Source of the DNA: a virus
Length of the DNA stretch: 47,522 nt
Virus record (IMG/VR): IMGVR_UViG_3300010384_000010
Reading direction: 5' to 3' (one strand)
Part shown: positions 6,381-44,672 of the stretch, one piece after another
How the letters are laid out: every line of letters begins with the position of its first letter
Position numbering within the stretch: position 1 is the stretch's first letter
Position numbers and translations under genes: made by a program
The notes under the pieces: generated by a model
Databases searched by the model: none
What the model saw: the letters and a program-made list of their open reading frames with translations, nothing else
Told to the model about the DNA's origin: nothing

Positions 6381-6410
6381 ATCGTAGCACCCGGGGGCGT
6401 CGTCACGCAA
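6381..6410 (-). promoter_or_regulatory. Putative extended -10 promoter for the terS/terL operon
   Basis: The minus strand reads TTGCGT-18 nt-(TGc)TACGAT. The -10 is at 6381..6386 and the -35 at 6405..6410. Confidence 0.4.
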
Positions 6411-6517
6411 CCACCACGCGAGGGTTGATTTGGCACCCGGGGGATGATACCGCCGCACGCCCAGGCGCGCACAGGCCCCCGCATGTCTACGAGCGCGCGC
6501 TCTCGTGCGCGTTTTCA

Positions 6518-9912: not shown

Positions 9913-10584
9913 TCACTGGCGAGTCTGGTTCCACGCCCGCATCACGGGCTCTTCGTAGCGCTGCAGCCGGTCGCCCAGGCACTGGTCCGCGTGGGACAGC
10001 AGCTTAGCCCCGGCCACGTACTTCTGCAGGTTCTTCTGGCGGACCACGGGCATCACGTGGTGCGTGTCGAGCCCGCGCCAGGCGAGATGGTCGCTGATCA
10101 TCGAGCGGTGGCACCGCCACCATTGGCATTCGCAGCAGAGCAGCGCGCAGCGTTTCTCGGTCAGCGCCCATTCGGCAATCAGCTCGGAGGCCGCGCGCAG
10201 GAAGCCCGGCGTGCTCATGAAGAAGCTGTAGTCGCGCAGCCCGGTGTTGGTCCAGCGGGGGCCGCCCCCCTCGCACCACGGATCGTTCAGGGCGATGCGC
10301 TGCTTGGGGAACTTGCGCCCCAGGTAGGGCCGGATGTCCACGCCGTGGGCGAGCATCTCCTCGGCCAGCGGCGCATGCTCCGGGAGCCAGCCGCCCAGCT
10401 GCGGGGCCCAGGCATAGCCGAAGCCTTCGGCCGGGAGCCACTGCTCCATGGCCTCGCGTTGGTACTGCGGCCAGCGACTGCCCGGGTGCGAGCGGGTGTC
10501 GACCACGGTATGGATGCCCGCCGCGCGCAGGAGGGCGGCGAAGTCCTGCTGGCTGTGGGTCGAATGGCCGATGGTCAGGATCAT
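9913..10584 (-). CDS. DUF488-family protein
   Basis: ORF trimmed to the ATG at 10582-10584. MILTIGHSTHSQQDFAALLRAAGIHTVVDTRSHPGSRWPQY matches the DUF488 N-terminal signature as I recall it. The Cys-rich segment LLCCECQWWRCHR is also typical. Confidence 0.55.
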   Translation of the reverse strand: MILTIGHSTHSQQDFAALLRAAGIHTVVDTRSHPGSRWPQYQREAMEQWLPAEGFGYAWAPQLGGWLPEHAPLAEEMLAHGVDIRPYLGRKFPKQRIALNDPWCEGGGPRWTNTGLRDYSFFMSTPGFLRAASELIAEWALTEKRCALLCCECQWWRCHRSMISDHLAWRGLDTHHVMPVVRQKNLQKYVAGAKLLSHADQCLGDRLQRYEEPVMRAWNQTRQ

Positions 10585-10820
10585 GTGCCTTCCCCCACGG
10601 GTGCCGGGTCCGATCCGGCCTCGATTGCGCGGATCAGCAGGGTGCGGACGCGCAGCTCGCGCTCCCGGGTGTCGCGGATGGCCTGGTCGCGAGCCGGGCA
10701 TGGCGGCAGCTGGGTGTTCATCCACACGTGGATGCCGGCGATGTGATTCAGCTCGCGCGTCAAGGCGTTCTCCACGATCTGGAGGTCCTCGCGCGCCATG
10801 CCTTCGAATGGGTTGCTCAT
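10581..10820 (-). CDS. Hypothetical protein
   Basis: 79 aa. The stop overlaps the DUF488 start (ATGA). Confidence 0.55.
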   Translation of the reverse strand: MSNPFEGMAREDLQIVENALTRELNHIAGIHVWMNTQLPPCPARDQAIRDTRERELRVRTLLIRAIEAGSDPAPVGEGT

Positions 10821-12932: not shown

Positions 12933-13669
12933 GCGCCCCGCCTCCGTTCCAGCTCCACCCGGGCGCAGTGCTTGGCATCCTCGCGCATGTCGGGCACCCC
13001 GGACATCCAGCGCAGGTAGTCGGCCGGGATCGTGTCCCAGGTCTGGCCCACATGCTTGCCGAGCGGGCAGCGGGGCAGGCGGGCCGGCTCGCGCGTCCAG
13101 GCGACCATCTCCGCGATCGCATTCTCGCGGGTCATCGTGAGCGTCATCTCGTCCAGGGCCCGCGACAGGATGCCGGCGGTCACCCGGGCATCGTGCAGGG
13201 CCGAGTGCGCCTCTTTGGCGCCGTTGCGCCCACGGCGCCCGATCTTGAGCCAGTAGCGCAGCCCCTCGTTGCTGTGGGAGGGAGCGTCGGGCCACAAGCG
13301 CAGGGCGGCCTTGTAGGTGCAAATCCAGGGCAGGTCGAGCAGGTCCTGCTCATCGCGCAGCACGCCGCGCTCATACTCGGCGTTGTGGGCAGCCAGGAGG
13401 ATCGAGCCCTCGCCGCCGTCCGACAGGAAGAGCTGCACTCGCAGCTCCGCCAGGGCGTCAATCCAGCTCGGCGCCCCCGCCAGGTCCTCCGGAATGATGT
13501 GGTGGACGGCCGAGACCTCGGGCGGCAGCTCGACGCCCTCGGGCAGGGCGACCAGCGTGTCCCAGCCGTACGCGGCCTCGTCGGGCGAGGCCAGGCCGAT
13601 TTCCACGGCGTGCGCGGTCTGCGCGTCGCGGCGGTCGGTTTCGAAGTCGAGCGTGAAGATGAAGTGCAT
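12929..13669 (-). CDS. DnaQ/ExoX-like 3'-5' exonuclease with a C-terminal DUF3820-like tail
   Basis: DEDDh motifs are present: FTLDFETD, AAHNAEYERGVL and AHSALHDARV. The C-terminus reads CPLGKHVGQTWDTIPADYLRWM. Trimmed to the ATG at 13667-13669. Confidence 0.75.
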   Translation of the reverse strand: MHFIFTLDFETDRRDAQTAHAVEIGLASPDEAAYGWDTLVALPEGVELPPEVSAVHHIIPEDLAGAPSWIDALAELRVQLFLSDGGEGSILLAAHNAEYERGVLRDEQDLLDLPWICTYKAALRLWPDAPSHSNEGLRYWLKIGRRGRNGAKEAHSALHDARVTAGILSRALDEMTLTMTRENAIAEMVAWTREPARLPRCPLGKHVGQTWDTIPADYLRWMSGVPDMREDAKHCARVELERRRGA

Positions 13670-14025
13670 CAATCGTTCCCCTTTACGAATGGTGAGCGCA
13701 GGCGGCCGTCCCGCCAGCACTGTTTAATGTTCTCCGACTGCGAAACCGGCTCCAGATGGTTCGGGTTGCAGCAGAGGGTGTTGTTGCAGCGGTGAGCGGT
13801 CACGTGGTGGCGCAGGAATCGGTGTCCCCACGCCACGGCCGCGAGCCAGTGGGACTTGAATTTGAAGCCGAAGATGTATGCCTGGCCGTACCGGCCATCG
13901 GTCGACTGGGCCCAATTCCAGCACCCGGTCTCCAGGTCGAGCGTGCAGCGCTCCAGGACGTATTCCCGGGCCTCGGCCAGGACCAGCGCGAGGAACAGGC
14001 ACGCGGCGGTCTCGCGATCACCCAT
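13669..14025 (-). CDS. HNH endonuclease
   Basis: AHRCNNTLCCNPNHLEPVSQSENI matches the HNH_3-type signature. Trimmed to the ATG at 14023-14025. 118 aa. Confidence 0.7.
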   Translation of the reverse strand: MGDRETAACLFLALVLAEAREYVLERCTLDLETGCWNWAQSTDGRYGQAYIFGFKFKSHWLAAVAWGHRFLRHHVTAHRCNNTLCCNPNHLEPVSQSENIKQCWRDGRLRSPFVKGND

Positions 14026-14272
14026 CGATCGCCCCCCACGTGAAGGGTAGGGCGAGCTGCGGGTCGGGGATGTCGCGCACGGCGAAGCTGCGGGGAGGGG
14101 CACCCAGCGTGGCGTTCCGGGTCTCGCGGCTCTGGCGGATGTACGCCTCGCGGTTGCGGAACGTCTCGCGGAGCCACTGGTCATCCATCACGCGCACCCC
14201 GAACCGGGGCGGCGGAACCTGGATTTCGTCGGTCATCGTCTCAGCCATGAATCCTAAGAACCGCTTTAACAT
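14018..14272 (-). CDS. Hypothetical protein
   Basis: ORF 14018..14458 trimmed to the ATG at 14270-14272, which directly follows CATAGAGGATAGAGAG. 84 aa. Confidence 0.45.
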   Translation of the reverse strand: MLKRFLGFMAETMTDEIQVPPPRFGVRVMDDQWLRETFRNREAYIRQSRETRNATLGAPPRSFAVRDIPDPQLALPFTWGAIDG

Positions 14273-14760: not shown

Positions 14761-15421
14761 CGGCGGGGGCCTCCCCCACAGTGCAGTCCGGGCCGGCGAC
14801 GAAGTACAGGCGCAGGCCGCGCTTGGCACAGGCCCGACCCACCTCGTCGGCGAAGTGGCCGTCACCGTCCTCGCGCACCAGCCACACGGCCGAGCCCGCC
14901 GGGATGCCGTGCAGGTTGTCCGGGTGCGTGGTCGTGTGACAGGACGCCCGGTGGTGGCCGCGCACCTGGGCGGCGCGCGCCGGGTTGCGGCAGACGATCG
15001 CGTGGGGGGTCGGAATAGCCGGCACTGGGGCCACGTCGCCCTGGAGCAGCCAGTGGTGGTCGGTGAGCGCCTCACCCGCCCGCTCACCCGCGATCCCCGG
15101 GGCGAGCCGCTCCACCATCATCCCACGCAACAGGAGCAGGTAGAGGATGGCATCGTCCACCCGCCCGGTGATCGGCTCGGCGTACTCGCGGGCCTCGCCC
15201 CGGGCGGAGTCATTCACCCAAGTGGTGACCGAAAACATGTGCTTGTCCAGGGCGACCATGAGCACCTGCTCGCGGGTCAGGCCCAGGCGCGCGGCGGAGG
15301 CTTCGAAGTTGGCAAACTGGCTCTGTGCGCGCTGGGTGTACTCCTCGCCCTTGGCGGCGGTCAGCGCCAACAGGCGCTCGTGCAGCTCGTTGATGCTTTG
15401 CTTGAATTCGTGCTTGTTCAT
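14753..15421 (-). CDS. DUF1599-like (all-alpha, nucleotide-modification-associated) domain fused to an unknown ~110-aa C-terminal domain
   Basis: KGEEYTQRAQSQFANFEASAARLGL...LDKHMFSV...DDAILYLLLL matches the DUF1599 pattern as I recall it. The start overlaps the datZ stop. Trimmed to the ATG at 15419-15421. Confidence 0.45.
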   Translation of the reverse strand: MNKHEFKQSINELHERLLALTAAKGEEYTQRAQSQFANFEASAARLGLTREQVLMVALDKHMFSVTTWVNDSARGEAREYAEPITGRVDDAILYLLLLRGMMVERLAPGIAGERAGEALTDHHWLLQGDVAPVPAIPTPHAIVCRNPARAAQVRGHHRASCHTTTHPDNLHGIPAGSAVWLVREDGDGHFADEVGRACAKRGLRLYFVAGPDCTVGEAPADA

Positions 15422-15999
15422 GCCTGCGGCCCCGTGAGCTTGCCGGTGAGAGTGTAGACCGCGATTTGGGTCTCGTATCCCAATTCGACGGCGGTGTATA
15501 AGTCGTGCGCCTTGAACAGGTCGGCGATCGCACGGGACAGCGCCTGCCGCAGGCCATCGTAGACTTGCCGCGCATGGGCCCCGACGCCGAAGTCCCGAAT
15601 CCATCCGCACGCCTCGGCGAGGTCGGCCACCTTGACGATGTAGCCGGCCAGGGGGCATTCCCCATCGGGGGACACGCAGAAGGCCAGGTCCGAAATGCTC
15701 TGGTCCACCGCGTGCGCCGTTCGGTCGAGCAGTTGCCGCCCGCCTTCGCCTAGCATGCGCTTGGCGTTGCTGGGCATGTCACCCGTCACTACTTCGTGCA
15801 GGTCGTGGACGCGCGCCCACTCCATCGCGTTCAGCGTGATCGAGTTGCCCCAGTCCAGCAGGCCCAGGACCCGGAGCAGCTCTTCGGTGATCAGGCCCAC
15901 CCGGTACATGTGTTCGGCGATGGTCTGCTCGCGCGAGGTGGCCACGATGTGCCAGCGGCGCACGTGACCCGCCCGCATTTTTTGGTCAAGCGTCAACAT
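15418..15999 (-). CDS. datZ: HD-domain dATP triphosphohydrolase (DatZ-like)
   Basis: HD-superfamily motifs are present: RRWH, IAEHMYRV, VHDLHEVVTGD and KVADL. It lies directly downstream of mazZ and purZ. Confidence 0.7.
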   Translation of the reverse strand: MLTLDQKMRAGHVRRWHIVATSREQTIAEHMYRVGLITEELLRVLGLLDWGNSITLNAMEWARVHDLHEVVTGDMPSNAKRMLGEGGRQLLDRTAHAVDQSISDLAFCVSPDGECPLAGYIVKVADLAEACGWIRDFGVGAHARQVYDGLRQALSRAIADLFKAHDLYTAVELGYETQIAVYTLTGKLTGPQA

Positions 16000-16321
16000 G
16001 GGAGAACACCCCAGAAGGGAGCTGCGCCCACTGGCGCCGCCGGTTGATGAAAAGTTTGGCCAGGACGGCGTCCGCCACGTCCACGCCGTTCATGGAGGCA
16101 AGGTCGAGCAGCATGATGAAGACGTCGCCCCACTCCAGCGGGTCGGCCGGGCTCTTGATGACCTCGCCCAGCTCTTCGAACAGCTTGAGCCAGGCGGCGG
16201 CGGGCTGGCGGGCCGGGAACGTCTCGGAGGCCCACCCGTGGACGCGCGCCTGAAGGGCCGCCACAGTGATAGCGCCCCCCTCCTCGGAGGGCGCCCCGGG
16301 CGTGGGGAGGGACCCGTTCAT
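15986..16321 (-). CDS. mazZ: MazG-like NTP pyrophosphohydrolase (MazZ-like)
   Basis: LKLFEELGEVIK...EWGDVFIMLLDLA is a MazG-type acidic helix pair. ATG 16319-16321 overlaps the purZ TGA (ATGA). Confidence 0.6.
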   Translation of the reverse strand: MNGSLPTPGAPSEEGGAITVAALQARVHGWASETFPARQPAAAWLKLFEELGEVIKSPADPLEWGDVFIMLLDLASMNGVDVADAVLAKLFINRRRQWAQLPSGVFSHVDA

Positions 16322-17472
16322 GCCAGCTGCCTCGCGCGGTCCGTATACTGGCGGTCCGCCCACTGGTCAAACGGAGGGAGGACGGCGGCAACGTCGGGGT
16401 GGGTGCCGAGCCACGGATACTCGGCCACATCGCCGGCCGCCGGGCCGAAGCCCAGGTAGGTCATCGTGCCGCCCGCCCGCGAAACGGTCAGGTCGGTGCG
16501 GCGGATGAACTGGCGGAACTTGTCGATCGGCACGTAGTTGCAGAAGTTGAGAAAGACATCGTCCACGCCACAGGCGCGCACGGCCTCGGCCAGCTGGACT
16601 TGGGACATGGTGAAGATGCGGCGGGGCAGCTTCGTGACGGTGGTCAGCTCGGGCTCGCGGCCCAGGTCGCGCAGCCAGTCCAGTTCGACCTGGTCCGGGT
16701 AGCACGGGCCGGAGAAGCCCACCTGGTTGCCGGCCTCGTCGAAGCGGTTCGCGACGCGGATCGGGTAGGTGCGCGCGCACCCCACGACCCGGAGCTGCCG
16801 GGCGGCACGCGCGGGGATGCCCACGTCCGCCAGGACTTGGTGGGTGCTCACGTCGCGCGAGGTGCAGTAGGGGTAGAAGCCATGATAGAGCGAGAGGCTG
16901 TAGCCCTGGGCGCCCTCGATCTGGACCTCCCGGGCCACGTCCCAGGCGTTGGCGTAGGTCTCGGCGCTGGCGACCGCGAAGGCCAGGCCGGCGGCCTCGA
17001 TGTCCGGATGCACACCGCGCAGGGCGGACCACGCGGTGTTGTGCTTGTCGGGGTCGCGGCGGATGCGCTCGATCATCGCCTCGCCCACGCCCTTTTTCGT
17101 GCTGCCGATCTTGGTCATCGGGCCGGCTTCCAGGTCGCGGTGTTCTTGGGTGATAACCGCCGCGTGCGGGTGGATGAGGATGTCCACGTCGCGCAAGTGG
17201 TCGCGGCACGCCTCCAGCTCGGCGCGCAGGGCGGCCGGGTTGAGCAGGGAGCCGGGGCCGATCAGCAGGCGGCGCAGGTTCGGGGAGACCACGCCGTTGG
17301 CCAGCATCGTGTGGATGTAGCTGCGGCCGGCACCGTCGATGAAGGTGTGGCCCGCGTTGGCGGCCCAGGCGGTGGCCACGGTATCGGGGCGCCGGGTCTG
17401 CGCGAGATAGCCCGCGATCAGGCCCTTGCCGGTGGAGCCATATTGCAGGTCGATGATGAGGTTGCCTTTCAT
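16318..17472 (-). CDS. purZ: PurZ, N6-succino-2-amino-2'-deoxyadenylate synthase (PurA homologue)
   Basis: Trimmed to MKGNLIIDLQYGSTGKGLIAGYLA. The P-loop reads GSTGKG instead of the PurA GDEGKG. The blocks GAQGYSLSL, FYPYCTSRD, ELTTVTK, VFLNFCNY and YLGFGP match PurZ of known Z-genome phages as I recall them. Confidence 0.85.
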   Translation of the reverse strand: MKGNLIIDLQYGSTGKGLIAGYLAQTRRPDTVATAWAANAGHTFIDGAGRSYIHTMLANGVVSPNLRRLLIGPGSLLNPAALRAELEACRDHLRDVDILIHPHAAVITQEHRDLEAGPMTKIGSTKKGVGEAMIERIRRDPDKHNTAWSALRGVHPDIEAAGLAFAVASAETYANAWDVAREVQIEGAQGYSLSLYHGFYPYCTSRDVSTHQVLADVGIPARAARQLRVVGCARTYPIRVANRFDEAGNQVGFSGPCYPDQVELDWLRDLGREPELTTVTKLPRRIFTMSQVQLAEAVRACGVDDVFLNFCNYVPIDKFRQFIRRTDLTVSRAGGTMTYLGFGPAAGDVAEYPWLGTHPDVAAVLPPFDQWADRQYTDRARQLA

Positions 17473-17687
17473 TTCGCGCGGTCCCCTGTGCATTCGGTGT
17501 CGTAGGTGTGGTGGAAGTCTGGCCAGCCAGTGGCCGGGTCCTGCTTGTGCGCCGCGACCATGCGGCAATACTCGTCCTGATCATCGTTGCGAGGGCCGGG
17601 CAGCAGGGCGACGGCCGCCAGCACCACGAGGGCGAGGGCGAGCAGGGCCAGCCACAACGGGTCAGCGGTCTTCAGTGGGTTTTTCAT
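17469..17687 (-). CDS. Small membrane protein
   Basis: 72 aa with a TM segment LWLALLALALVVLAAVALL. The stop overlaps the purZ start. The leader motif lies upstream. Confidence 0.55.
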   Translation of the reverse strand: MKNPLKTADPLWLALLALALVVLAAVALLPGPRNDDQDEYCRMVAAHKQDPATGWPDFHHTYDTECTGDRAK

Positions 17688-18062: not shown

Positions 18063-19919
18063 TCAGGCCGATGCAATGTGCCAGTTTTCGCCCACACCCT
18101 GGTCCGTGCGGATCGGCACGCGGAGCGAGATGCGGTCCTCGGGGCCAAACGCGGTCAAGATGCGGTTGACCTCGTCCTTCAGATGGTCGCAGCCCTCGGG
18201 CAGCATCCAGTCAAACTCGTCGTGCACGTTCAGGACCAGCCGCGCCCCGGCCTCGCGGATGTGGTCGGGCTGCGATTCGAAGAACTGGTCCGCCTCCACG
18301 AGCTTCACCTTCAGCGCGTCGGCCGCCGTGCCCTGGAAGATCAGCCCGCCGGCCTTGTACACAAACATGCCGCGCGGGAACCGGATGCGGCGGCCCAGGA
18401 TGGTGCACACGTGGCCCCGGGACTTGGCCACGGCCGACGCGTCCTTGAGCAGGTCCCGCACGCCGGGGATGTTGGCGTGGTACTTTTCAAACACCGCCTC
18501 CGCCTCGGGGCCAGGCTTGACCCAGGTCCCGCCGCGCCCGTTGGGCTCGATGGTGAACGGCAGGCCCATCTCCTGGGCGAGCTTGCCCTGGCCCATGCCG
18601 AACACCAGCCCCAGGTTGATCTGCTTGGCGTTGGGGTCACCCGCGAACCGGGCGGAGCGGGGCAGGCCGGTGAGCCCGGCGGCCAGCGAGTGGAAGTCGG
18701 TGTCGGGGTCCTTGTTGTACATCTCCAGAATTTCGGCGTTCCGCACATAGTGGGAGAACACCCGGAAGTCCATCTGCGCCCAGTCGTTGCAGACCCATCG
18801 GCAGCCCTGGTACGGCACGAACACCGCGCGCACGATGGCCGCCATGTCCTTGTCGCGCTTCGGAATCTGCTGGAGCGCCGGGGCGTTGACGGACAGGCGG
18901 CCGGTGCCGGTCCCCACGTCGCCCTCGCTCTTCGTCTGGTTGATGTTGGCGTGGATGAGGCCGCCGTGGTGGTTGCCCAGCACGTGGCCGCGCAGGAACG
19001 TGTCCCGGGCCTTGATCATTTTGCGCAGGCCCAGGATCTTCGCCGCCGCCGGGTGCTTCATGCGGCGCAGACAGTCCGCGTCGATCGATGCCTTGGCCCC
19101 GCTGTCGGAGGGGTCGGCAATCGTGCCATCGTTCAGCACAAAAATCTTCGTGCCGTCCGCCGTCCGCTCCTCGCGCGGTTCGAACAGCTTGTGGATGCTG
19201 CCGCTGGGGTTGGGGTTGACCGGAAATCCGGCCAGCCGGTCCAGCTCGCGCTGCTCCTGGCGCACCTTCACGTCCAGGGCATTGGCCGCGCGCTCGGCGG
19301 CCCCGATGTCCACCCGGACGCCGTACTGCTCCATCCGTACGATGACGGGCAGCAGCTGCATCTCCAGCTCGTGGACGCGCTCCAGGCCCTGTTTCTCGAT
19401 CTGCTCCTGCTGCCACATCCACAGGCGCAGGGCTGCGCGGGTGTCCTGCTTGGCGTAGCGCCCGACGATGCTTGCCGGGGCGCGGGGCAGGTTGGGCATC
19501 TGCGCGTGCCGGGTCGGCTTGCCGCCGAACAGGTCCGCCAGCTCCTGGTAGATGGAGGAGTCCTTGCCGATCCCCACGCAATCCTTGGCGACCGAGTCCA
19601 GGTCATAGGTGAGCCGGTGCTCATCAATCAGCGCCGCGCGGATCATTGTACACTCGGTGCGGTCGTTCGGCAGGATGATTCCGGCCTCGCGCGAGAAGTG
19701 CCAGTCGAACTTTATATGGTGGTTGACGACCTTGCGCACGCGGGGCATCTCCTCGCGCAGCCAGTCGATGACCTCGGGCTCGCGCCGGACGTCCCAGTAG
19801 TGATCCTGCTCGGGCGTGGAGAGGGCGACCCCGAAGATTTTGTCCTGCCACCAGGTCAGCCCGGTGGTCTCCAGGTCGTACGCGATGACCGGATAGTCGG
19901 CGATGCGGGGGAAGCTCAC
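18063..19919 (-). CDS. dpoZ: Family-A DNA polymerase with 3'-5' exonuclease domain (DpoZ-type candidate)
   Basis: Exonuclease motifs IAYDLETTGL and NHHIKFDWHF. Polymerase motif A NDWAQMDFRVFSHY, motif B PNAKQINLGLVFGMGQGKLA and motif C LNVHDEFDW. It lies next to the purZ cluster. Confidence 0.8.
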   Translation of the reverse strand: MSFPRIADYPVIAYDLETTGLTWWQDKIFGVALSTPEQDHYWDVRREPEVIDWLREEMPRVRKVVNHHIKFDWHFSREAGIILPNDRTECTMIRAALIDEHRLTYDLDSVAKDCVGIGKDSSIYQELADLFGGKPTRHAQMPNLPRAPASIVGRYAKQDTRAALRLWMWQQEQIEKQGLERVHELEMQLLPVIVRMEQYGVRVDIGAAERAANALDVKVRQEQRELDRLAGFPVNPNPSGSIHKLFEPREERTADGTKIFVLNDGTIADPSDSGAKASIDADCLRRMKHPAAAKILGLRKMIKARDTFLRGHVLGNHHGGLIHANINQTKSEGDVGTGTGRLSVNAPALQQIPKRDKDMAAIVRAVFVPYQGCRWVCNDWAQMDFRVFSHYVRNAEILEMYNKDPDTDFHSLAAGLTGLPRSARFAGDPNAKQINLGLVFGMGQGKLAQEMGLPFTIEPNGRGGTWVKPGPEAEAVFEKYHANIPGVRDLLKDASAVAKSRGHVCTILGRRIRFPRGMFVYKAGGLIFQGTAADALKVKLVEADQFFESQPDHIREAGARLVLNVHDEFDWMLPEGCDHLKDEVNRILTAFGPEDRISLRVPIRTDQGVGENWHIASA

Positions 19920-21355
19920 AGCGCGTAGCTCCTGTCAAAGCCACCCACAATCTCCAGCTCCTCGACCGCGCGGGTGACGCCCACGTAGAACACGCGGGCC
20001 TCCGCGTCGGGGTTGCCGTCCATGCCGCGCTCGATCCGCGCGGTGATGCCGGTGTGCAGGACCACGCGCCGGGCCTCGCGCCCCTTGGAGGCGTGGATGG
20101 TGGACAGGCGGATGGTCGGGGTCTGCGTCAGGTCCGCCTCCCGGAAGAAGTCCAGGAGCTGGATCGGCACCCGCAGCGAGCGCTCCCAGCCGCGCGCAAC
20201 GATCGCGCGCCAGTCCCGCGAGTTTAGGTCCGACTTGGTGGCGTCGGTGGCAACCTTCGCCAGGGCCTCAGCCTCGGCCGTCGACGGTACGTGCCCCGCG
20301 CCCATCCGGTGGATCAGGCGGATGGCATCGGCCCAGGTAGAGTCGAACAGGCCAGGCTTGCCGCCCTCGACCCGGTAGGGCTTGCGCACCGCGATCAGCT
20401 CCTCCTCCACCTCCTTCTTCTGCGTATGGCTCCGGGCCAGGATGAGCACATCGTCACCGTGGGTCACCTGCTCGGCCGTGAATCCGTTGCCCGAGCGCGT
20501 GACCAGCCCCTCCCGGGGCGCCGCGCGGTAGCTCTTTTTGACGCGGTGGCCTATGGTCGCTACTACCCCACGGGCGACCTCGTGCACGGCCCGGGGAACG
20601 CGGTAGGACTGCGCCAGGATGACCGGCTCGGCGCCGTACCGCTCGGTGAACTTGGCCATGCCGTGTGGGTCGGCCCCGGACCACTCGTAGATTGCCTGGT
20701 CATCGTCCCCGGCGATGGTCACCTCGTCCAGCTGGTCGAACCGACACATCGCGTCCACCATCTGCCACTGCAGCGGGGACAGGTCCTGGGCCTCGTCCAC
20801 GAACAGCACGCGGGCACCATGGTTGCGGGGCTCGGCCACGTACCGTTCGATCAGGTCGGTGAAGTCGGTGAAGCCATACGCCTGCTTCCACGAGTTGTAG
20901 CTCTCGACGCAGTGCTGGTAGCGCGCGAAGTCGCCGGGGCGCTCGCTGTCCGCGTAGTAGGCGTCCTTCCAGTCGCCCAGGGTGGCGCGCGCCAGCTCGT
21001 AGATCGCCAGGTACTTGTCGCCGTCCGCCATCTCTTGGCCGAACTCGTCGTCGCGGTTGGCCGCGCCGGTGAACTCGATGCCGGCGGCCTTACCGAACCG
21101 GCGCAGCTTGTAGCCGTCCACCATCTGCATGGGCGACGCGCCGCACGCGCGGAACGCCAGGGAGTGGAGGGTACAAATCTTGTCGGAGCGCGTCACACCC
21201 AGGCGGCGGAGCGCCTCGTTGGCGGCGGCCCGCGTGAATGACATGAAGCCGATGTGCTCGGCCCGATACCCGCGCTTGCGGGCCTCGCCGACACGCCGCA
21301 GCATCTCGGTGGTCTTGCCGGTCCCCGGGGGGCCGAAAATCGCGAACGCCTGCAT
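19916..21355 (-). CDS. UvrD/Rep-like superfamily-1 helicase
   Basis: Trimmed to MQAFAIFGPPGTGKTT (Walker A). Further motifs: LFVDEAQD, GDDDQAIYEWSGA, SYRVPRAV, STIHASKGREA and YVGVTRA. Confidence 0.8.
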   Translation of the reverse strand: MQAFAIFGPPGTGKTTEMLRRVGEARKRGYRAEHIGFMSFTRAAANEALRRLGVTRSDKICTLHSLAFRACGASPMQMVDGYKLRRFGKAAGIEFTGAANRDDEFGQEMADGDKYLAIYELARATLGDWKDAYYADSERPGDFARYQHCVESYNSWKQAYGFTDFTDLIERYVAEPRNHGARVLFVDEAQDLSPLQWQMVDAMCRFDQLDEVTIAGDDDQAIYEWSGADPHGMAKFTERYGAEPVILAQSYRVPRAVHEVARGVVATIGHRVKKSYRAAPREGLVTRSGNGFTAEQVTHGDDVLILARSHTQKKEVEEELIAVRKPYRVEGGKPGLFDSTWADAIRLIHRMGAGHVPSTAEAEALAKVATDATKSDLNSRDWRAIVARGWERSLRVPIQLLDFFREADLTQTPTIRLSTIHASKGREARRVVLHTGITARIERGMDGNPDAEARVFYVGVTRAVEELEIVGGFDRSYAL

Positions 21356-23412: not shown

Positions 23413-25197
23413 CGCCTCCATCACGTCCTCTACACGCGCCGTTGACGCCGAGCGCTGCAGCTCGGTGATCCGCCCCCGGATGAACTCGGCGAGGTCCTGC
23501 TTGGTCTCGTTGGCCGACATGATTATCTCGTCGGTCGTGCCGCGCGCGACCAGGTCCACGATCAGGGTGGACTTGCCATCGGCCGTGCCGCGCTCCTCCG
23601 ACTGCATCCTGTCGGCAAACTTGAACGTGTTGCTGAAGTAGACGATGGTAGTCGCCTCGTCCATGGTCAGGCCCATGCCGCCGGTCGCCGCGTTACCGAC
23701 GCAGAATCGCGCCTTGTGCTTCTGGAACAGCTCATACACGTTAACATCGCGCTGGGCCTCGTCCACGGCACCGTGCAGCTCCACCACCTGGTCCTGCCCG
23801 TACCGGGCGCGCAGGGCAGCAGTGACCGCCTGGATTTCATCGATGAAGGCGCACCACACGATCATCGGGCCCTCGTACTCCTCCGCGCAGGCCAGGACCT
23901 CGGCCACCTTGGGGTTGGTGCCGTCGATGGCCTTGCGGTAGGTGCGGGGCAGGCGCTTCGCCGGGCCCCAGACTTCGCGCTGCCTGGCCATCTCCTCCTC
24001 GGTGTACTGGTAGGACACGTGGCCGCCCACGACCTCCTGCAAGCGGAGCATCTTCTCCAGGACGTTCTGGACGATCAGCTGCGGCTCGCCGTCGACGCCC
24101 AGGCGCGAGCGCTTGCGCAGGTCCGAGTACAGGGCCCGCTGGCCGGGCGTCATATCTACCTCGCGCAGGACGTACACCTTCTCGGCGTCGACGACTTCGT
24201 GCTGGCGCACCTGGTACGTGTAGGGGCTGACCAGCTCCACCAGCTCGTCCAGGTTATCGTAGCCGATGATGTCCTTGTTCTCGTACCCGCCCTTGACGGT
24301 GTAGCGGGCCTGGAAGGAGAAGTAATCGCCGATCCCCAGGATGTCCGGGTCCAGAAATTCGAACTGCATATACAGGTCGAGGGGGTTTTTGGTCAGGGGC
24401 GTGCCGGTCAGAATCCGCCGGAAGTCCACCATCCGGCCCACGCTCGCGACGTTCTTGGAGCGGGCGGAATTGTGGGTCTTGATGAGGCTGGACTCGTCCA
24501 CCGCGCACATTACGCGCGGGTTGGCCAGGCAGAACCGTTTCACGTACTCGATGGCCGAGCCGGCGGACAGAGACTCTACGCCCACCAGCAGCCATTTGAA
24601 GTCGTGCGGCCGATCGAGCCACCGGCCAAACGCGCGGCCCTTGTCCTTGGTGTCGAGCAGGTGGTAGTCGACCGGGATGGTTGCATCCTTTGCGAACTCG
24701 CGCACCCAATTCTTGCGCAGGGACAGCGGGCAGATCAGCACCACCGCGCGGACCTTGTCCTCGATCCGCAGCGCGCACGCCTCATCAATGAGCACCTTGG
24801 TCTTGCCAGTGCGCATGTCCATGAACAGGGCCGCCGCGCTGAGCCCGTAGACCTTGCTTAGCGCCTCCCGCTGCTTGGCCCTGGGCTGGCGCTTGAACCC
24901 GTAGTAGGCAGGGAACGCGTCAGGGGCCGGGCGCTCGCTCCTCCGCTGTTGGTGCTCCTCGATCCGGGCGCGGGCGGCGGCGGTGACCAGGGCGCTGCCC
25001 TTGTAGACCCGGATGATTTCTTCGATGTTCGCCCGGATCGCGGGCGCTGTCCAGGCATTGCGGCCCTTGTTCCAGCGCCGGTTGGGGAGCGCCCGCACGC
25101 GCCCGTTGTCGAAGATTGGGCAGGTGATGATGAATTGCCCTTTCTTCACGTCGAAGTCGATGACGGTCTTAATACTCGGGTTCGAAACGGGTTGCAT
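23392..25197 (-). CDS. SNF2-family (DEAD-like) helicase
   Basis: 601 aa. Motifs: FMDMRTGKT (motif I), AVDESSLIK (DExx), LTGTP, and a C-terminal helicase domain with GGMGLTM. Confidence 0.8.
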   Translation of the reverse strand: MQPVSNPSIKTVIDFDVKKGQFIITCPIFDNGRVRALPNRRWNKGRNAWTAPAIRANIEEIIRVYKGSALVTAAARARIEEHQQRRSERPAPDAFPAYYGFKRQPRAKQREALSKVYGLSAAALFMDMRTGKTKVLIDEACALRIEDKVRAVVLICPLSLRKNWVREFAKDATIPVDYHLLDTKDKGRAFGRWLDRPHDFKWLLVGVESLSAGSAIEYVKRFCLANPRVMCAVDESSLIKTHNSARSKNVASVGRMVDFRRILTGTPLTKNPLDLYMQFEFLDPDILGIGDYFSFQARYTVKGGYENKDIIGYDNLDELVELVSPYTYQVRQHEVVDAEKVYVLREVDMTPGQRALYSDLRKRSRLGVDGEPQLIVQNVLEKMLRLQEVVGGHVSYQYTEEEMARQREVWGPAKRLPRTYRKAIDGTNPKVAEVLACAEEYEGPMIVWCAFIDEIQAVTAALRARYGQDQVVELHGAVDEAQRDVNVYELFQKHKARFCVGNAATGGMGLTMDEATTIVYFSNTFKFADRMQSEERGTADGKSTLIVDLVARGTTDEIIMSANETKQDLAEFIRGRITELQRSASTARVEDVMEALTPPSP

Positions 25198-26743
25198 GTT
25201 GCACCTCCTCCTCGATCATGGCGGCGGGCAGATACCAGACGGGCAGCACCTGCTTGCCCACCCGCACCCGGTCGTTGCGCACGCCCATGGCCCGGGATGC
25301 CCGGAACCACAGGTCCTTGTTCTTGATCACGTCGGTCTTGGTCTTCTGCAGGTAATTCACGAAGTCCACGGACCGGAACATTACGACGCGCTCGTCCTTG
25401 TGCAGCTGCACGACCGGCACACCACGGAGCAGGGCCTCGCGGTCCTTGGCCTGGTCGCCCTCGTTCTTCAGGTCGGCCTTGCGCAGGAACTCGATGAGGC
25501 GAATGCGGACCGCGCCGTCCGGGGTGGCGTCCTCGGGGACCTCGTCAATCGTGATCTTGTCGAACATCTCGCGGAGCATCTTGTCCCACTCGTCGTTCTT
25601 GAGCCGGGGAAGCACCACATGCGTGCGGGCCATCACCGCCTTGCGCAGCTCGGTGAACGAAGACAGCTCCTCGATCGTCAGGCCCTCGATCTTGCGCGCG
25701 CCGTCACCCTCGCCAATGGACAGGTCGAAGCGCAGCGGGTCGGTGTTGTGATACTTGACCAGGGAGTGGAAGGTCGGCATCGTCTCGCGCGACGACATCG
25801 CTTCGAACTCGGCCTCCGAGATGCCCCACTTGAGCTTGCGGCAGGCGGCCCGGTCGCAGACGTCGCGGAATCCGCTGCACTTATAGTTGGCCTTGCTGCT
25901 GATCGCGGACTTGATGGTCTTGTCACGCTCCTTGAACGGCAGCGGGTCGTCGGCCATGAACCGCATGGACAGGTCGTGGGCGGCCTCGCGCGCCGTGTCG
26001 GGGTCGCGCTTGCGGGCGAACACGGCCACCTGATAGGTGCCCTCATTGCGCTCACCCGGGTTGAACCCGCCGGATTTCATGCGCGCCTGGAGGCACGGGG
26101 GCATCTCAGTGAGGTCGTCGGCAAACAGGCGGTGGAGGGTCGCGGCATCGATGGCCGTGGTCTCCGCCTTGGTAAGAAAGGCGTCCAGAGTAAGCCGCTT
26201 GCCGTTGGACACGGCGAACCGCTTGGTCTCGGCCTCGCCGAAGTAGGGCAGGTTGATCCAGTTGCCCAGGGCCTTCTCGCCCTCGTCGTTTATGACCAGC
26301 CGGCTCTGCTTGGGGTAAATGCAGTCGACGCCCTCCACCTCCAGCGACTTGGCCCAGCGGGTGAGCACCTGACGGACGATGTCGCAGCGCACCGGCTCGT
26401 TGAAGAACACGTACAGGTGCACGCCGCCGGACTTGCTGCGGCACGCCACCAGCGGGTACTCCAGCTCCGCCACCTTCCGCTCGACCGCGCGGATGTCGGT
26501 GTCCTTGTCGGACCCGTGGTTGTCGATGTCGATAGCCCCCCAAAAGCAGGTACCATCGTCGCGGATGGGGACGAGGCCCAGGCCCATCCTCCCCTCCAGG
26601 TGCTCGCGGACCTGGGCCTCGCCGTACTCCGCCTTCTCGGTCAGGGAGTCCTTCTTCGGCGGCTTATTCGGGTTCCACATCCCGTAGGATCGCGGGTTGC
26701 CGCGAAACAGCGACATGTAGCGTCGCAGGCTCAATTCATCCAC
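25169..26743 (-). CDS. Primase-polymerase (AEP/PrimPol family)
   Basis: FWGAIDIDNH (DxD) and SKSGGVHLYVFF (sGgG-H) are AEP catalytic motifs. The ORF opens with GTG at 26741-26743. ATG codon 10 is an alternative start. Confidence 0.7.
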   Translation of the reverse strand: MDELSLRRYMSLFRGNPRSYGMWNPNKPPKKDSLTEKAEYGEAQVREHLEGRMGLGLVPIRDDGTCFWGAIDIDNHGSDKDTDIRAVERKVAELEYPLVACRSKSGGVHLYVFFNEPVRCDIVRQVLTRWAKSLEVEGVDCIYPKQSRLVINDEGEKALGNWINLPYFGEAETKRFAVSNGKRLTLDAFLTKAETTAIDAATLHRLFADDLTEMPPCLQARMKSGGFNPGERNEGTYQVAVFARKRDPDTAREAAHDLSMRFMADDPLPFKERDKTIKSAISSKANYKCSGFRDVCDRAACRKLKWGISEAEFEAMSSRETMPTFHSLVKYHNTDPLRFDLSIGEGDGARKIEGLTIEELSSFTELRKAVMARTHVVLPRLKNDEWDKMLREMFDKITIDEVPEDATPDGAVRIRLIEFLRKADLKNEGDQAKDREALLRGVPVVQLHKDERVVMFRSVDFVNYLQKTKTDVIKNKDLWFRASRAMGVRNDRVRVGKQVLPVWYLPAAMIEEEVQHATRFEPEY

Positions 26744-26764
26744 TGGAACGGTCCCCTTCGGTTT

Positions 26765-26848
26765 CTCTATGCTCTATCGGGTCGATGCCGCCCGGCCACT
26801 GGCCGGGGATGGATACATGGTAGCACACCGTGAAGACGCCGTGAAGAC
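26765..26848 (-). promoter_or_regulatory. Promoter-leader unit upstream of PrimPol, with two 11-bp-phased TCTTCACG repeats over the -35
   Basis: The minus strand reads TCTTCACGGCGTCTTCACGGTGTGCTACCAT. -10 at 26817..26822. Repeats at 26828..26837 and 26839..26848. Leader hairpin CCCGGCC-AGT-GGCCGGG. Motif at 26765..26780. Confidence 0.45.
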
Positions 26849-26892
26849 CGCGTGACGGCTGGGTGAGGCACCCCGCGCGCTCGCGCGAATCG

Positions 26893-27375
26893 CGCGCCCC
26901 CACGCGAGAGAGGCACCCCAAGCCCAGAGCCAGAGCCCTCCCCCCGCCCCGTTTTCTAGGCGCCGGGCTGTTGTAGGCGTGATAGGGTGCCGCCAGGGAG
27001 GCTACAACGCCCTGAGCCCGCGCCGGGCGGGGCCTCGCGGCCGGTTGTTGTAGTGTGATAGGGTCGCCGGGCTGTGCCGTCCGCGCCGAGAGCGGCCGTG
27101 GGGGGTAGCCTACAACAACAACACAGGCCCCCTTATCGGGCGCCCGCGCGTACGTGTGTCGGGGAGGAGGCGGGGCGGTGCCGCTCGCTGGGCCGGGAGG
27201 GGGCCACGGCGGCCCGTGGGGGAGGGGGGCGGGTGTGGCAGTAGCGGTCCCGGGGGTCGAGGGCCCCGGAGAGGCTCCCGTGAGGCCAGGCCGTGTTGTA
27301 GTCTCCCGGGCCCAGGCTGCAACACGCGGGGCCCGGATACGCGGCGGGGCGCCCCGAGAGGCGCCCCGCCGTATC
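26893..27375. repeat. Non-coding module B, paralog of module A (6518..7015)
   Basis: It has the same ordered sequence blocks as module A. The hairpins lie at 26970..27008, 27044..27119 and 27292..27326. Confidence 0.8.
27343..27370 (-). terminator. 11-bp GC hairpin 25 nt after the first early gene (terminator-like, no U-tract)
   Basis: The minus strand reads GGCGGGGCGCC-TCTCGG-GGCGCCCCGCC. Confidence 0.35.
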
Positions 27376-27394
27376 ACCGAGTTGTGAGACCGGG

Positions 27395-28698: not shown

Positions 28699-30159
28699 TC
28701 AGCCGCCCAGCTTCGCGAGCCGCTCGCGGAGCGCCGCGTTCTCGGCCGCCAGCTCGTCCACGCGCTGTGCTGCCCACATGGCCAGCTCCAGGGCGGAATG
28801 GGAGTAGTCGACGCCCAGGCGGCGCACGGTCTTCTTCGCCCCGGGCTTCAGGTAGTCGAACTCGTGCACGTACTCCGGGGCGTCCTTCTGCATGTCCTGG
28901 GCCAGCACGCCGCGCCCGGCCTCGCCGCTGTCCGCGTGCACGTAATCGCAGAGTCGGAGCCGGCGGTGTAGGGGGCGCGGCTCGGTGAAGGCGATGTCGC
29001 GCTTGATGCGCCGGTCGGAGCCCTGCACGTTGCAGGTGCCCTGCACAATCAGGTTGCCGTAGAACTGGCCGTAGGTCGCCTGAATCTTCAGGCAGTAGTC
29101 CCAGCTGGTGCCGTTCCAGGTCTGCATGTTCATACCGCCGTCTACGCCGTCGCTGACGTTCACGAAGATGCGGTAGGCGTTGGTCCCGTTCGGAGCCGAG
29201 TAAAACGTCAGGGTTGCGAGGTTGTGCTTGATCGACAGCATGTCGCTCAGCTGGCCGCCCGTCAGCGGGAGCAGGCCGTTCAGGGCGTCCTGCAGCCCGT
29301 TCGTCTTGGCGATAGCAAGGGCTCCATCCGCGATGGCCGTAGCGAGCGTGACGCTGCCGGTGCCGTCGAAGTTGACGGCCGCTGCGGTCACCGGGCCCGT
29401 AAGGTTGAACGCGCGGGCGGTGGCCAGCCGGGTGGCGGCCTGGGCGGTGCCGTCGACCGGCAGATAGCCAGTGCCGGTGAAGCCGGCGGAGTAGTAGTTG
29501 GTGCCGTCGCTGAACACCACCATGGCGGTGCCCCCGCCCACTGTCACACCGGAGCCGGTGGCGCCCTGCACGTTGAGCGTTCCGCCGCCGGTCGTCCGGT
29601 TGCTGACGATGTACGAGGCACCGGCCGCCAGCGGCAGGCGCAGGGCAGTGGTGAGGCCGGTCGAGTCCCCGGTCACCGCGAGCACGTTGCAAGTCAGCTG
29701 CGCCACGGTGGGGGTCAGGTCGCCCGCCGCCACGGCCAGCGAGGCCCGGCCGCTGTTCGGGCGGAATGCCACCCAGCCGGCGCCGCCCGCGTCGGGGTCC
29801 GCGCTGTTGTCGTCCGTGGTGTTGATCCACAGCACGTTCACCCCGGCCGTGGCGCTGCGCAGCACGGCGCCCGCCGGGTAGCCGCCGATCGCGGCGGCGA
29901 AGGTCGAGTCGTAGGCGTAGGTCCCGCCCGCCTGGAGCCAGCGGCCCTGGGCGGTCATTTCGAAAAGCAGGCCGTTGAAGTCCTGCCCGTACGGGGGGGT
30001 GCCGCCCGACGCGATCGGTTGGCGAGTCTCGTCCGGGAAGCCCTGGTCGTAGGAGGCACGCCCCGGGCTGGCCGGCGGCTGGGTGGCCGGAATCGTGAAC
30101 TTCGTGCCGTTGGTGGCGAACGGGACCGGCTGGCGCGCGGGGACGTTGATGGCTTTCAT
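28699..30159 (-). CDS. Tail fibre with a C-terminal intramolecular chaperone (peptidase S74) domain
   Basis: 486 aa. GSDRRIKRDIAF... followed by a coiled C-terminus (ELAAENAALRERLAKL) is the S74 auto-cleaving chaperone signature. Confidence 0.75.
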   Translation of the reverse strand: MKAINVPARQPVPFATNGTKFTIPATQPPASPGRASYDQGFPDETRQPIASGGTPPYGQDFNGLLFEMTAQGRWLQAGGTYAYDSTFAAAIGGYPAGAVLRSATAGVNVLWINTTDDNSADPDAGGAGWVAFRPNSGRASLAVAAGDLTPTVAQLTCNVLAVTGDSTGLTTALRLPLAAGASYIVSNRTTGGGTLNVQGATGSGVTVGGGTAMVVFSDGTNYYSAGFTGTGYLPVDGTAQAATRLATARAFNLTGPVTAAAVNFDGTGSVTLATAIADGALAIAKTNGLQDALNGLLPLTGGQLSDMLSIKHNLATLTFYSAPNGTNAYRIFVNVSDGVDGGMNMQTWNGTSWDYCLKIQATYGQFYGNLIVQGTCNVQGSDRRIKRDIAFTEPRPLHRRLRLCDYVHADSGEAGRGVLAQDMQKDAPEYVHEFDYLKPGAKKTVRRLGVDYSHSALELAMWAAQRVDELAAENAALRERLAKLGG

Positions 30160-42956: not shown

Positions 42957-44672
42957 TCAGCTCCGGTCGGGGCGGGAAGCGCCCGGGTACTTGTGGTAGA
43001 ACGAGGTGCGAGCATCCACCGAGTCCATGGCGACGCTCGGGGCCTTGGCGGCGGCCTTGTGCGCCTTGACCTGCTTGGCCATCTCGACCATCGCGGGCAG
43101 GGCGGCGGCGTGTACGCCATCGTGGGCGACGCCCTCCTGGGTCAGGGCGAAGCGATAGACCGCCTCGGCGCTGTCCATGGCGGTCACTTCGCCGACGAGC
43201 GGGGCGACCGCCTTCTCGGCCGTGCGCAGGGCGAGGTAGTCGGCGCGGGCCTCGGACTTGGCCTTCGCCAGGATCGCATCCGCGTCCTGGGCGACCTCGG
43301 GGTCCTTCTTCGGCTCGTCTTCCTCGTCGTCGGCCGGGGCCTCGTCCATGGCGACCTGGAGGATGCCGGACAGCTGGGGCACGTCGACGTCGAAGCGGGC
43401 GTCGTAATGCTTGGCGACGGCGCGGGCGATGTCGGTCGGGCGAGCATCGGCGGCGAGCAGCTCGCCGTATGGGATGGGCGCCGAGTCCTGGGCCAGGGCA
43501 GGCATCAGGTAGGCGCTCAGGGCGGCACGCAGGGCGACCGCCTTGGGGCTTACGTTCTTGGACATGGTGAAAAGCTCCACGGGTTGGGAATCGCCAACGA
43601 TGACGTCGGCTCCTGCACGTCCCACAGTGACCAGTGCGACATGGTTGCCGACGATGTTTATCATGCGGCCGTCAAACGGCTGCCCTTCAAACATGCCGGG
43701 CGTCATGTCAGCATCATAGCGGTACGATGCCGACAATTGCTGCTGCTCCCCTGTCTCAACTGTCGCGATGGCGGAATTATCCCACACGACAAGGGAGTTG
43801 TCTAGATATGGCGGGTTCCAGGTGGCGTTGGAACCGGTGCAGCCCACCACGTACTCCTTTTTCGGGTCGTTGGCCGAGACCGGAATGTGGCGGCAAAGGA
43901 GCTGGATATTGTTGAAGGTCGGCGCGGCCTTGCGCAGCTCCTCCGGGTCGCGCAGGAGCTTGTACAGCCGGTTCGGGTCCAGGCCCAGCTGCTGCCAGCG
44001 CGGAATCTCGCGGCCAAAGTACGGACAGACGTTGGCCTTGGAGATGTGCGACATGCGCACCCGCAGACGGCCGAAGCCATCGTACGAGCGGACGGAGTCG
44101 AAGTCCATCGCCAGCGGGGCCTCATCCTCGGCCAGGCCCTCGGGCGCGGCTTCGGGCTGCAGCAGGTGGGCGAGCGCGCGCTCCAGGCCCGGATGGAGCG
44201 GGGAGGGCAGGGCGGTGAGCGGGAACCAGCCGCAGGCGGTATGCTCGTCGCACAGCTGGGCCTCGGCACCCTCAGGCGCGGCGGCAATGAACGTGCTGAA
44301 TTCGACGCGGTCGTCCCCGCCCAGGTCGAGCAGGCGCAGGGCACCCGGGTCGACCGCGATGCCAGTCTCCTCCAACAGCTCGCGCGCCGCAGCGGCGGCC
44401 GGCTCCTCGCCGTCTTCGATCTTGCCCCCGGGGACTGCCCAGGTGCTGCCGTGGTCGCCCCCGGGGCGCCGTTGGGCCAGCAAGATGTCGCCGTCGCGGA
44501 TCAGGGCCACGCCCGCCGCCTGGAGGAGCGGGGCCTCGTCCTCGGCGTAACCGTTGGCGTGCGCGGCCTCGGCCTGAGCTTCCGCCTTGCGGCGGTCGGA
44601 GTAACACTTGCCGTGGCGGCCCCACTTGTAGCCACCACGGCCGCCGGGGAGAGGGCAGGAATGAATGGGCAT
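42957..44672 (-). CDS. Nudix hydrolase domain inserted in a DUF2213-type scaffold/prohead protein
   Basis: Single 571-aa ORF. The Nudix box GGKIEDGEEPAAAAARELLEETGI fits GX5EX7REUXEEXGU perfectly. From MDFDSVRSYDGFGRLRV onward it is DUF2213-like, with an Ala/Glu/Lys-rich C-terminus. Confidence 0.7.
   Translation of the reverse strand: MPIHSCPLPGGRGGYKWGRHGKCYSDRRKAEAQAEAAHANGYAEDEAPLLQAAGVALIRDGDILLAQRRPGGDHGSTWAVPGGKIEDGEEPAAAAARELLEETGIAVDPGALRLLDLGGDDRVEFSTFIAAAPEGAEAQLCDEHTACGWFPLTALPSPLHPGLERALAHLLQPEAAPEGLAEDEAPLAMDFDSVRSYDGFGRLRVRMSHISKANVCPYFGREIPRWQQLGLDPNRLYKLLRDPEELRKAAPTFNNIQLLCRHIPVSANDPKKEYVVGCTGSNATWNPPYLDNSLVVWDNSAIATVETGEQQQLSASYRYDADMTPGMFEGQPFDGRMINIVGNHVALVTVGRAGADVIVGDSQPVELFTMSKNVSPKAVALRAALSAYLMPALAQDSAPIPYGELLAADARPTDIARAVAKHYDARFDVDVPQLSGILQVAMDEAPADDEEDEPKKDPEVAQDADAILAKAKSEARADYLALRTAEKAVAPLVGEVTAMDSAEAVYRFALTQEGVAHDGVHAAALPAMVEMAKQVKAHKAAAKAPSVAMDSVDARTSFYHKYPGASRPDRS

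Follow-up and report, generated by a model that had tools for sequence, protein, structure and literature searches.

Heptad arrays in two paralogous intergenic modules of a predicted Z-genome siphophage are probably protein-binding DNA sites rather than RNA hairpins

The viral sequence analysed here (IMG/VR virus record IMGVR_UViG_3300010384_000010; 47,522 nt, hereafter the window, to whose whole length all positions refer) contains two intergenic modules, module A ahead of the terminase genes terS and terL and module B ahead of a primase gene, each with three inverted repeats (IR1, IR2 and IR3) whose arms are built from the coding-strand heptads CTACAAC and CTATCAC. An initial annotation had leaned towards reading these repeats as hairpins of a structured RNA. 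We consider it very probable that the hairpin arms are instead DNA sites for a phage-encoded protein. The heptads occur in fixed geometry at the heads of two operons, all copies within a genome are replaced together between related phages, and no signal of RNA structure accompanies them. The window is probably a whole phage genome of ~47.5 kb; its GC content is 66%, and codon-position GC places every credible gene on the minus strand.

As a description, the initial annotation holds up well. The coordinates and sequences that it gave for three hairpins per module are correct (Table 1): hairpin 1 (IR1) sets GTTGTAG at 6606-6612 opposite TTACAAC at 6638-6644 in module A and GTTGTAG at 26970-26976 opposite CTACAAC at 27002-27008 in module B, spanning 39 nt in each, hairpin 2 (IR2) lies where it was placed in both modules, and hairpin 3 (IR3) consists of CGTGTTGTAG/CTACAACACG in A and CGTGTTGTAG/CTGCAACACG in B. 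The two odd stem positions are also present, with G6612 facing T6638 and T27299 facing G27319, and interiors do differ while lengths are kept, the interior of IR2 being 34% identical between A and B with an arm-to-arm distance of 56 bp in both. Pairwise alignment of the two modules further reveals that, besides the hairpin arms, they share several blocks in the same order. Three features had been overlooked: a second heptad, GTGATAG/CTATCAC, located 2 nt from many copies of GTTGTAG, the true intergenic span of module A, and the location of all the repeats ahead of a conserved coding-strand (minus-strand) promoter.

The heptad is strongly over-represented and clustered in non-coding DNA. Counting both strands, GTTGTAG occurs 19 times in the window against 1.81 copies expected, a number reached by none of 100 shuffles, and 11 of the 19 copies fall within the ~1.1 kb of intergenic DNA that makes up the two modules. 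An extended word, GTTGTAGNNGTGATAGGG, is present in three copies (0.13 expected).

The comparison set encompassed 12 homologous modules from eight genomes: the window and seven relatives (r1 to r7) drawn from a large protein collection with primase identities of 89 to 66%, of which r1 is the 89%-identical relative. The region upstream of the primase gene was taken from r1-r7 and the region upstream of terS from r1, r2 and r3, with modules fetched separately. The r1 contig (L098, 19.2 kb) begins in module B and ends just short of module A, and the terS region of this phage lies on separate short contigs (L106-L110); the r1 assemblies probably broke at the paralogous modules. In IMG/VR, the primase relatives (≤48% identity) lack the heptad, and an 18-mer motif scan returned 17 single matches that resembled the modules in nothing but the motif. 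A longer gapped pattern had one true match in IMG/VR, corresponding to module A of r2 (L112), three chance-like matches devoid of the module repeat architecture in metagenomes, and none in genome contigs.

Within any one genome, every inverted repeat uses the same one or two heptads, and these heptads vary between genomes. The window, r1 and r2 use CTACAAC and CTATCAC, r3 and r4 use CTATCAC together with GTGTCAG/GTGTCG, r5 and r6 carry three TATCAC copies in tandem with a period of 9 bp, and the word at the heptad position in r7 is CGACAC. Judged by their alignment, modules A and B are old paralogs that have kept A-with-A and B-with-B orthology, with identities of 85% between the A modules of the window and r1, 80% between their B modules, and 63% between A and B of the window; the IR2 interiors of the two paralogs of a genome are 30-34% identical. 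Despite this old paralogy, both modules of a genome switch heptad together, a pattern characteristic of co-evolution with a trans-acting factor. The sharing of one sequence by all the stems also argues for sites of one protein, because independent RNA stems need not share sequence.

The concerted replacement of all copies extends from these eight related genomes to the two nearest cultured relatives, Salmonella phage PMBT28 and Acinetobacter phage SH-Ab 15497 (~40% primase identity). In PMBT28, tandem and inverted arrays of ATGGAACG are found upstream of the primase gene (20885-20984), and a second ATGGAACG array (43643-43907) precedes a consensus promoter. In SH-Ab 15497, arrays of GAGCAACC/GGTTGC lie upstream of both the primase gene and terS, with the palindrome CCGTCTGACGG kept between arrays. 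Of 74 more distant primase loci covered by a crude scan, 25 have some 7-mer that recurs four or more times and in both orientations in the 700 nt preceding the gene.

Direct and inverted copies are held in fixed phase over spacers that are not themselves conserved. In IR1 the start-to-start distance is 23-24 bp throughout the 12 modules, with a spacing of 32-33 bp as well in the 11 modules where a distal heptad is present; in IR3 it is again 23-24 bp, a value that recurs in 10 modules of relatives. IR2 measures 55-56 bp in nine modules, and IR2 is separated from IR1 by 43-44 bp. Direct repeats of the 7-2-7 type are unpaired, and IR3 mirrors IR1 in the A-type modules of three genomes (window, r1 and r2). 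Read on the coding strand, the elements run from a terminator-like hairpin, whose counterpart in r2A has a T-run, through IR3 and a variable stretch to block 1, in which ATAAGG follows a CGGG..CCCG palindrome; next come IR2 (tandem heptads and, after a gap, CTATCAC-N1-2-CTACAAC), block 2 (CCCGTCNGACGGG-like), IR1 (a heptad, 16-17 nt, and CTATCAC-N2-CTACAAC), AAAACGGG, block 4, an extended -10 element (GTG[GC]TAnnAT), a leader and the next gene. The extended -10 element is found 45-150 nt before the called start of the next gene in 11 of the 12 modules; that of r3A, the remaining module, falls immediately beyond the extracted stretch and within the open reading frame (ORF) called as terS. The module A element is identical in r1A and reads GTGCTACAAT in r2A, and PMBT28 carries TGGTATACT and a consensus TTGACA-N17-TATAAT promoter at the equivalent positions.

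Stability, a covarying consensus, G-U pairs confined to one strand and membership of a known family are all missing from these elements. The initial annotation had seen in the two G-U-compatible stem positions a hint of selection on a plus-sense RNA, antisense to the genes, and this proposal finds no support. The fold of module B (376 nt) is no more stable than those of its dinucleotide shuffles on either strand, with z-scores of +0.47 (plus) and +0.22 (minus) and 71 and 58 of 100 shuffles at least as stable. RNAalifold assigned the 12 modules -4.37 kcal/mol with a covariation term of +0.16, recovering only IR1 and short GC stems, and an Rfam scan of the whole window gave no match at gathering thresholds. 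Counted on the structure proposed earlier, pairing over the 12 modules amounts to 89% in IR1, with two pairs changed on both sides, and to only 71% and 33% in the two helices of IR2. The double-sided changes of IR1 go together with a genome-wide heptad switch.

Across 34 inverted repeats, 209 positions are Watson-Crick pairs; of the remainder, 10 could form G-U in plus-strand RNA, six could do so in minus-strand RNA, and 13 could pair in neither. At one IR3 pair, the coding strand sets C against A in the window (G-U on plus) and U against G in r1 (a mismatch on plus). The two phages hence give opposite G-U directions at the same pair, and the strand argument fails. Some relatives, moreover, keep the heptads without their pairing partners: IR1 of r2B places GTTGTAG opposite CTATCAC, IR2 of r3 and r4 places GTGTCAG opposite CTATCAC, IR3 of r3A also pairs different words, and IR1 of r5B pairs at only 3 of 7 positions. 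Relatives of this sort are what the initial annotation had itself named as a refutation of the structural reading. Heterotypic repeats of this kind, pairing at 3-5 of 7 positions, argue against a hairpin in DNA as well as in RNA. The comparative data thus favour the alternative that the initial annotation had itself mentioned, a protein half-site used in both orientations.

The explanation that we favour, to which we give an even chance as a whole, is that protein-bound heptad arrays govern the promoters of two operons. The coding-strand heptads CTACAAC and CTATCAC (roughly YTRYMAC) would be recognition sites, in double-stranded DNA, for a sequence-specific protein. The heptads are set out in two kinds of fixed unit. 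One is an inverted pair at 23-24 bp, to which a third copy is often added after another 9 bp (7-2-7); the other is a set of facing tandem arrays 55-56 bp apart. Interleaved with conserved GC palindromes, the units make up a rigid scaffold of ~160 bp, with the IR3 pair ~180 bp further upstream. Two old paralogous scaffolds of this type, each preceded by the predicted terminator of one operon and followed by the predicted extended -10 promoter of the operon after it, would be bound cooperatively by the phage protein, and the resulting complex might govern the firing of both promoters, for instance as an early/late switch or as a shut-off. Module B heads the primase, replication and Z-base operon, and module A heads the operon of terS, terL and the structural genes. 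The presence of two copies, each at an operon head with its own promoter, favours the control of two promoters, and promoter control comes just short of an even chance in our assessment of the main role of the modules.

Several observations weigh against this explanation. Searches of ~40 window ORFs with Pfam and PHROGs returned no helix-turn-helix (HTH) or ribbon-helix-helix (RHH) protein. A strict sigma-70 scan of both modules found no promoter, the extended -10 elements being consensus matches only. Between the last heptad and the -10 element lie 83 to 155 bp, a spacing that does not vary in whole helical turns; this is awkward for an activator or repressor in direct contact with RNA polymerase and suits an autonomous element, such as an origin, better. 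The comparison covers eight genomes, in which several of the changes are shared by descent, and the two double-sided pair changes of IR1 would, taken alone, be equally expected of an RNA stem.

With regard to the binding protein, many small ORFs of the window carry no annotation, and PDB sequence searches with the primase and with the Pam3 gp32/33/34-like proteins gave no candidate. A LuxR/GerE-type HTH protein encoded near the end of the early operon of r3 (L111 89-652) was considered as a shared binder and rejected, since it has no homolog in the window. Two other assignments of the repeats were likewise discarded. A reading of IR1 as a -35/-10 promoter (TTGTAG-N17-TATCAC) would rely on a -10-like hexamer that lacks the final T and turns to CGACAC in r6 and r7, and res-type recombination sites, being directly repeated, would delete 20 kb.

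The most serious rival holds that the modules are replication origins, or an origin and a second cis-acting replication site, with the heptads acting as iterons or template-recognition sites for an initiator or for the AEP primase, and with their opposed orientation permitting assembly or priming on both strands. We regard this as possible, though less likely than promoter control. By position alone the repeats adjoin a replication gene, and heptad arrays immediately precede the primase gene in the window, r1-r7, PMBT28 and SH-Ab 15497, as they may in the third or so of distant loci picked up by the crude scan. A rigid multi-site scaffold of ~160 bp at a variable distance from the promoter is also what an autonomous nucleoprotein complex would display.

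Precedents exist in the ori and crr sites of P4, which are bound by the alpha primase-helicase, and in oriL and oriR of SPP1, which are bound by G38P; in both systems two distant sites share initiator-binding repeats. Like these iterons, which are recognised by a replication protein encoded close by, the heptads recur as short words, direct and inverted, at two sites separated by many kb. Unlike them, they are accompanied by no AT-rich element, either in the modules of the window or in those of the lower-GC phages PMBT28 and SH-Ab 15497, and by a primase in which Pfam, PHROGs and PDB sequence searches found no recognised origin-binding domain, and both copies sit at operon heads with a promoter. 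The missing AT-rich element would count for less where diaminopurine replaces adenine. Duplication of the whole module, including the promoter-proximal blocks and the promoter itself, at both operon heads is more simply explained by a transcriptional role. Cumulative GC skew has no inflection at the modules and is uninformative in a genome with all genes on one strand.

In its broadest form, which we think unlikely, the proposal would make the modules the origins of a broad group of Z-genome siphophages, with the genome-specific heptads as loading or template-recognition sites for the AEP primase or another initiator, placed on both strands to let synthesis start outward from a protein-held bubble. 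If true, the proposal would supply a way to open an origin in DNA where each base pair has three hydrogen bonds and AT-rich unwinding cannot work.

We find it improbable that the repeats are packaging signals of the pac type, recognised by the small terminase subunit, or that they form hairpins or cruciforms in single-stranded DNA, for example as priming signals. Module A is placed directly upstream of terS in the window, r1, r2, r3 and SH-Ab 15497, and TerS diverges fast, retaining 68% identity to r1 and 43% to r3. Yet module B, 20 kb from terS, is the better conserved copy, and the second module of PMBT28 is located 2 kb and five genes upstream of terS. DNA hairpins would tolerate the G-T mismatches, but the heterotypic arms speak against them. 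Folding in a transcript, whether as a plus-sense antisense non-coding RNA or as a sense leader such as a put-like antitermination element, is most improbable: the conserved order and size of the inverted repeats, the high pairing of IR1 and the ten plus-strand G-U positions would fit it, but the repeats fall between the terminator-like hairpin that precedes them and the predicted start of the sense transcript, and scans of both modules found no plus-strand promoter.

The features of the two modules and their neighbouring genes are collected in Table 1. The minus-strand gene order runs from portal, capsid and tail genes through module B to the replication and Z genes, many small ORFs, module A and then terS and terL. 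The primase gene is followed by genes for an SNF2 helicase, Pam3 gp32/33/34-like proteins, a UvrD helicase and DNA polymerase A, and the small ORFs fill the interval between the HD phosphohydrolase gene and module A. The set of PurZ, MazZ-like and DatZ-like genes marks the window, as far as gene content can tell, as a diaminopurine (Z-genome) siphophage, whose DNA would probably contain 2-aminoadenine in place of adenine. Scans of the window for tRNA and tmRNA genes gave no match, a DNA similarity search against cultured phages returned a single 40-nt match at chance level, and a terminator scan of both modules yielded one match per module, within shuffle expectation. The intergenic span of module A was set at about 6242-6942 because terS encodes ~200 aa.

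Table 1. Coordinates of the modules, their elements and selected genes in the window.
Feature	Position	Strand	Remarks
Tail fibre gene	28699-30159	-	Among the structural genes ahead of module B
Module B, whole span	26744-27394		Precedes the AEP primase gene
Terminator-like GC-rich hairpin	27343-27370	-	Sense GGCGGGGCGCC-TCTCG-GGGCGCCCCGCC; ends the structural operon, just upstream of module B (sense)
Module B IR3 (hairpin 3)	27292-27326		Heptads GTTGTAG and CTGCAAC, 23 bp start to start
Module B block 1	27131-27150		Palindrome CGGGCGCCCG, then ATAAGG
Module B IR2 (hairpin 2)	27044-27119		Plus strand GTTGTAG (27047-27053), then GTGATAG (27055-27061); opposite side CTACAACAAC; arms 56 bp apart, interior unconserved
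Module B block 2	27009-27036		Between IR2 and IR1; CCCG..CGGG palindrome (CCGTCNGACGG in relatives)
Module B IR1 (hairpin 1)	26970-27008		Plus-strand 7-2-7-N16-7 unit, GTTGTAG-GC-GTGATAG ... CTACAAC
AAAACGGGG block (sense)	26947-26955	-	Near-invariant across the 12-module alignment
Block 4, CTCGCGTGGGGGCGCG (sense)	26893-26908 (B); 6518-6533 (A)	-	Identical in A and B
Module B extended -10, GTGCTACCAT (sense)	26817-26826	-	TTCACG 17 nt upstream; ~80 nt before the primase start codon
Primase-leader tandem, GATAGAG-C-ATAGAGA	26764-26778	-	Between the -10 element and the ribosome-binding site
AEP primase	25169-26743	-	Directly after module B
Family A DNA polymerase	18063-19919	-	
PurZ-like adenylosuccinate synthetase	16318-17568	-	
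PF04447 dATP/dGTP pyrophosphohydrolase	15986-16363	-	
HD/YfbR-like phosphohydrolase	15418-15999	-	
Module A, true intergenic span	about 6242-6942		Precedes terS and terL
Module A IR3 (hairpin 3)	6896-6940		Mirror image of IR1; sense GTTGTAG-GT-GTGATAG-N16-CTACAAC
Module A block 1	6770-6786		GCGCGCGCCCGATAAGG (sense)
Module A IR2 (hairpin 2)	6683-6760		Plus strand, two tandem CTACAAC(A), then opposite GTTGTAG and GTGATAA; arms 56 bp apart, interior purine-rich and unconserved
Module A block 2	6645-6672		GAGCGCCCGTCTGACGCGGGCTCAGGGC (sense)
Module A IR1 (hairpin 1)	6606-6644		Plus strand GTTGTAG-GT-GTGATAG ... TTACAAC
Module A extended -10, GTGCTACGAT (sense)	6381-6390	-	Ahead of a short upstream ORF and terS

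The palindromes between the heptad arrays follow a different course from the heptads. The block 1 palindrome is kept in relatives with other centres (CGGGTACGTACCCG, GCGGGCACCCGC), block 2 is kept as far as SH-Ab 15497, and the CCCGTCNGACGGG palindrome of block 2 (L121 ~20985-20995 in that phage) is thus conserved to an Acinetobacter host, whereas the heptads are not. Together with CGGG..CCCG in block 1 and CCCGTRCGGG in block 4, it suggests a second, conserved DNA-binding factor. The tandem GATAGAG-C-ATAGAGA of the primase leader is kept in the B-type modules of all relatives, with counterparts in PMBT28 (gagatacagagata, L120 ~21103-21118) and SH-Ab 15497 (GAGATAAGAGATA, L121 ~21195-21210), and may be an operator for translational or transcriptional autoregulation.

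A direct repeat, two copies of GTCTTCACGG at 26826-26850 on the minus strand, separates block 4 from the -10 element in module B of the window; it is degenerate in r1 and absent from the other relatives compared. The IR2 interior of module A (6700-6735) contains a purine-only run on the coding strand (GGAGAGAAGAGAAG...GAGAGAAGAG), and a long C-rich, pyrimidine-heavy run lies upstream of block 1 in module B (27195-27235); triplex or R-loop formation by these runs is possible. Ahead of terS, a 30-codon upstream ORF (MSSTRYPFRLNPLALAIAHALQSGLHFARG, then a stop; 6234-6326, minus strand) overlaps the GTG start of terS (6241) in a different frame. It is kept in r1 (L106 2457-2549) as MPSTRYPFRLHPLAVAIAQALQSGLYFTRG, again followed by a stop, and may serve as a leader peptide or translational-coupling device for terS. 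The small early genes also include an HNH/His-Me endonuclease-like ORF with weak, sub-threshold Pfam matches (13669-14184, minus strand) and a gene for a DUF488 protein (9913-10725, minus strand).

The literature searches made here returned no description of these elements, nor of how Z-genome phages transcribe their genomes or where their replication begins. The modules appear to be an undescribed and widely conserved cis-architecture of these phages, although repeat arrays of this general kind are familiar. Two modules, genome-specific repeats, palindromes and an extended -10 element are shared by a broad group of Z-genome phages that includes PMBT28 and SH-Ab 15497, and the two modules separate the replication half of the genome from the structural half. 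Z-genome phages have been intensively studied for their base chemistry, and the modules offer precise targets in the search for a regulator or initiator and for phage engineering. They also hold a caution, as inverted repeats with seemingly compensatory changes can arise through the turnover of binding sites and not from RNA structure.

Among known systems, protein p4 of phage phi29 is a small protein that drives the early-to-late switch through inverted half-sites ~15 bp apart, several of which lie upstream of promoters. The modules resemble p4 sites in having inverted half-sites upstream of phage promoters. They differ in that p4 sites stand at a fixed distance from the promoter and have no 7-2-7 repeats, facing tandem arrays or duplicated module, and no p4 homolog was detected in the window. 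The OL and OR regions of phage lambda are two control regions with three operators each, in which 17-bp dyads overlap the promoters and the half-site contains TATCAC, and these operators co-evolve with the repressor, giving an immunity-type specificity that differs between related phages. The modules would similarly be paralogous control regions with shared half-sites; their spacings, in contrast, are much larger, and neither a cI/Cro-type protein nor a lysogeny gene was found in the window.

The omega protein of plasmid pSM19035, an RHH protein of ParB function, binds non-palindromic 5'-WATCACW-3' heptads in direct and inverted orientation at several promoter regions, with one dimer per heptad and cooperation between neighbours (PMC9499535). 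In that system the heptads adjoin one another without gaps (7-bp period, 7-10 copies), and the promoters lie within their reach of overlap (PMC9499535). By the measure of at least four contiguous heptads overlapping a promoter (PMC9499535), the modules are not of the omega type: their period is 8-9 bp, with at most two to three copies per array. Copies here are 9 bp apart or separated by spacers of 16-17 and ~48 bp, at least 83-155 bp upstream of the -10 element, and neither an RHH protein nor ParA was found in the window. In logic, omega is nonetheless the closest system, as in both cases a short word is used in both orientations at promoters, and the omega word resembles the TATCAC(A) of the modules.

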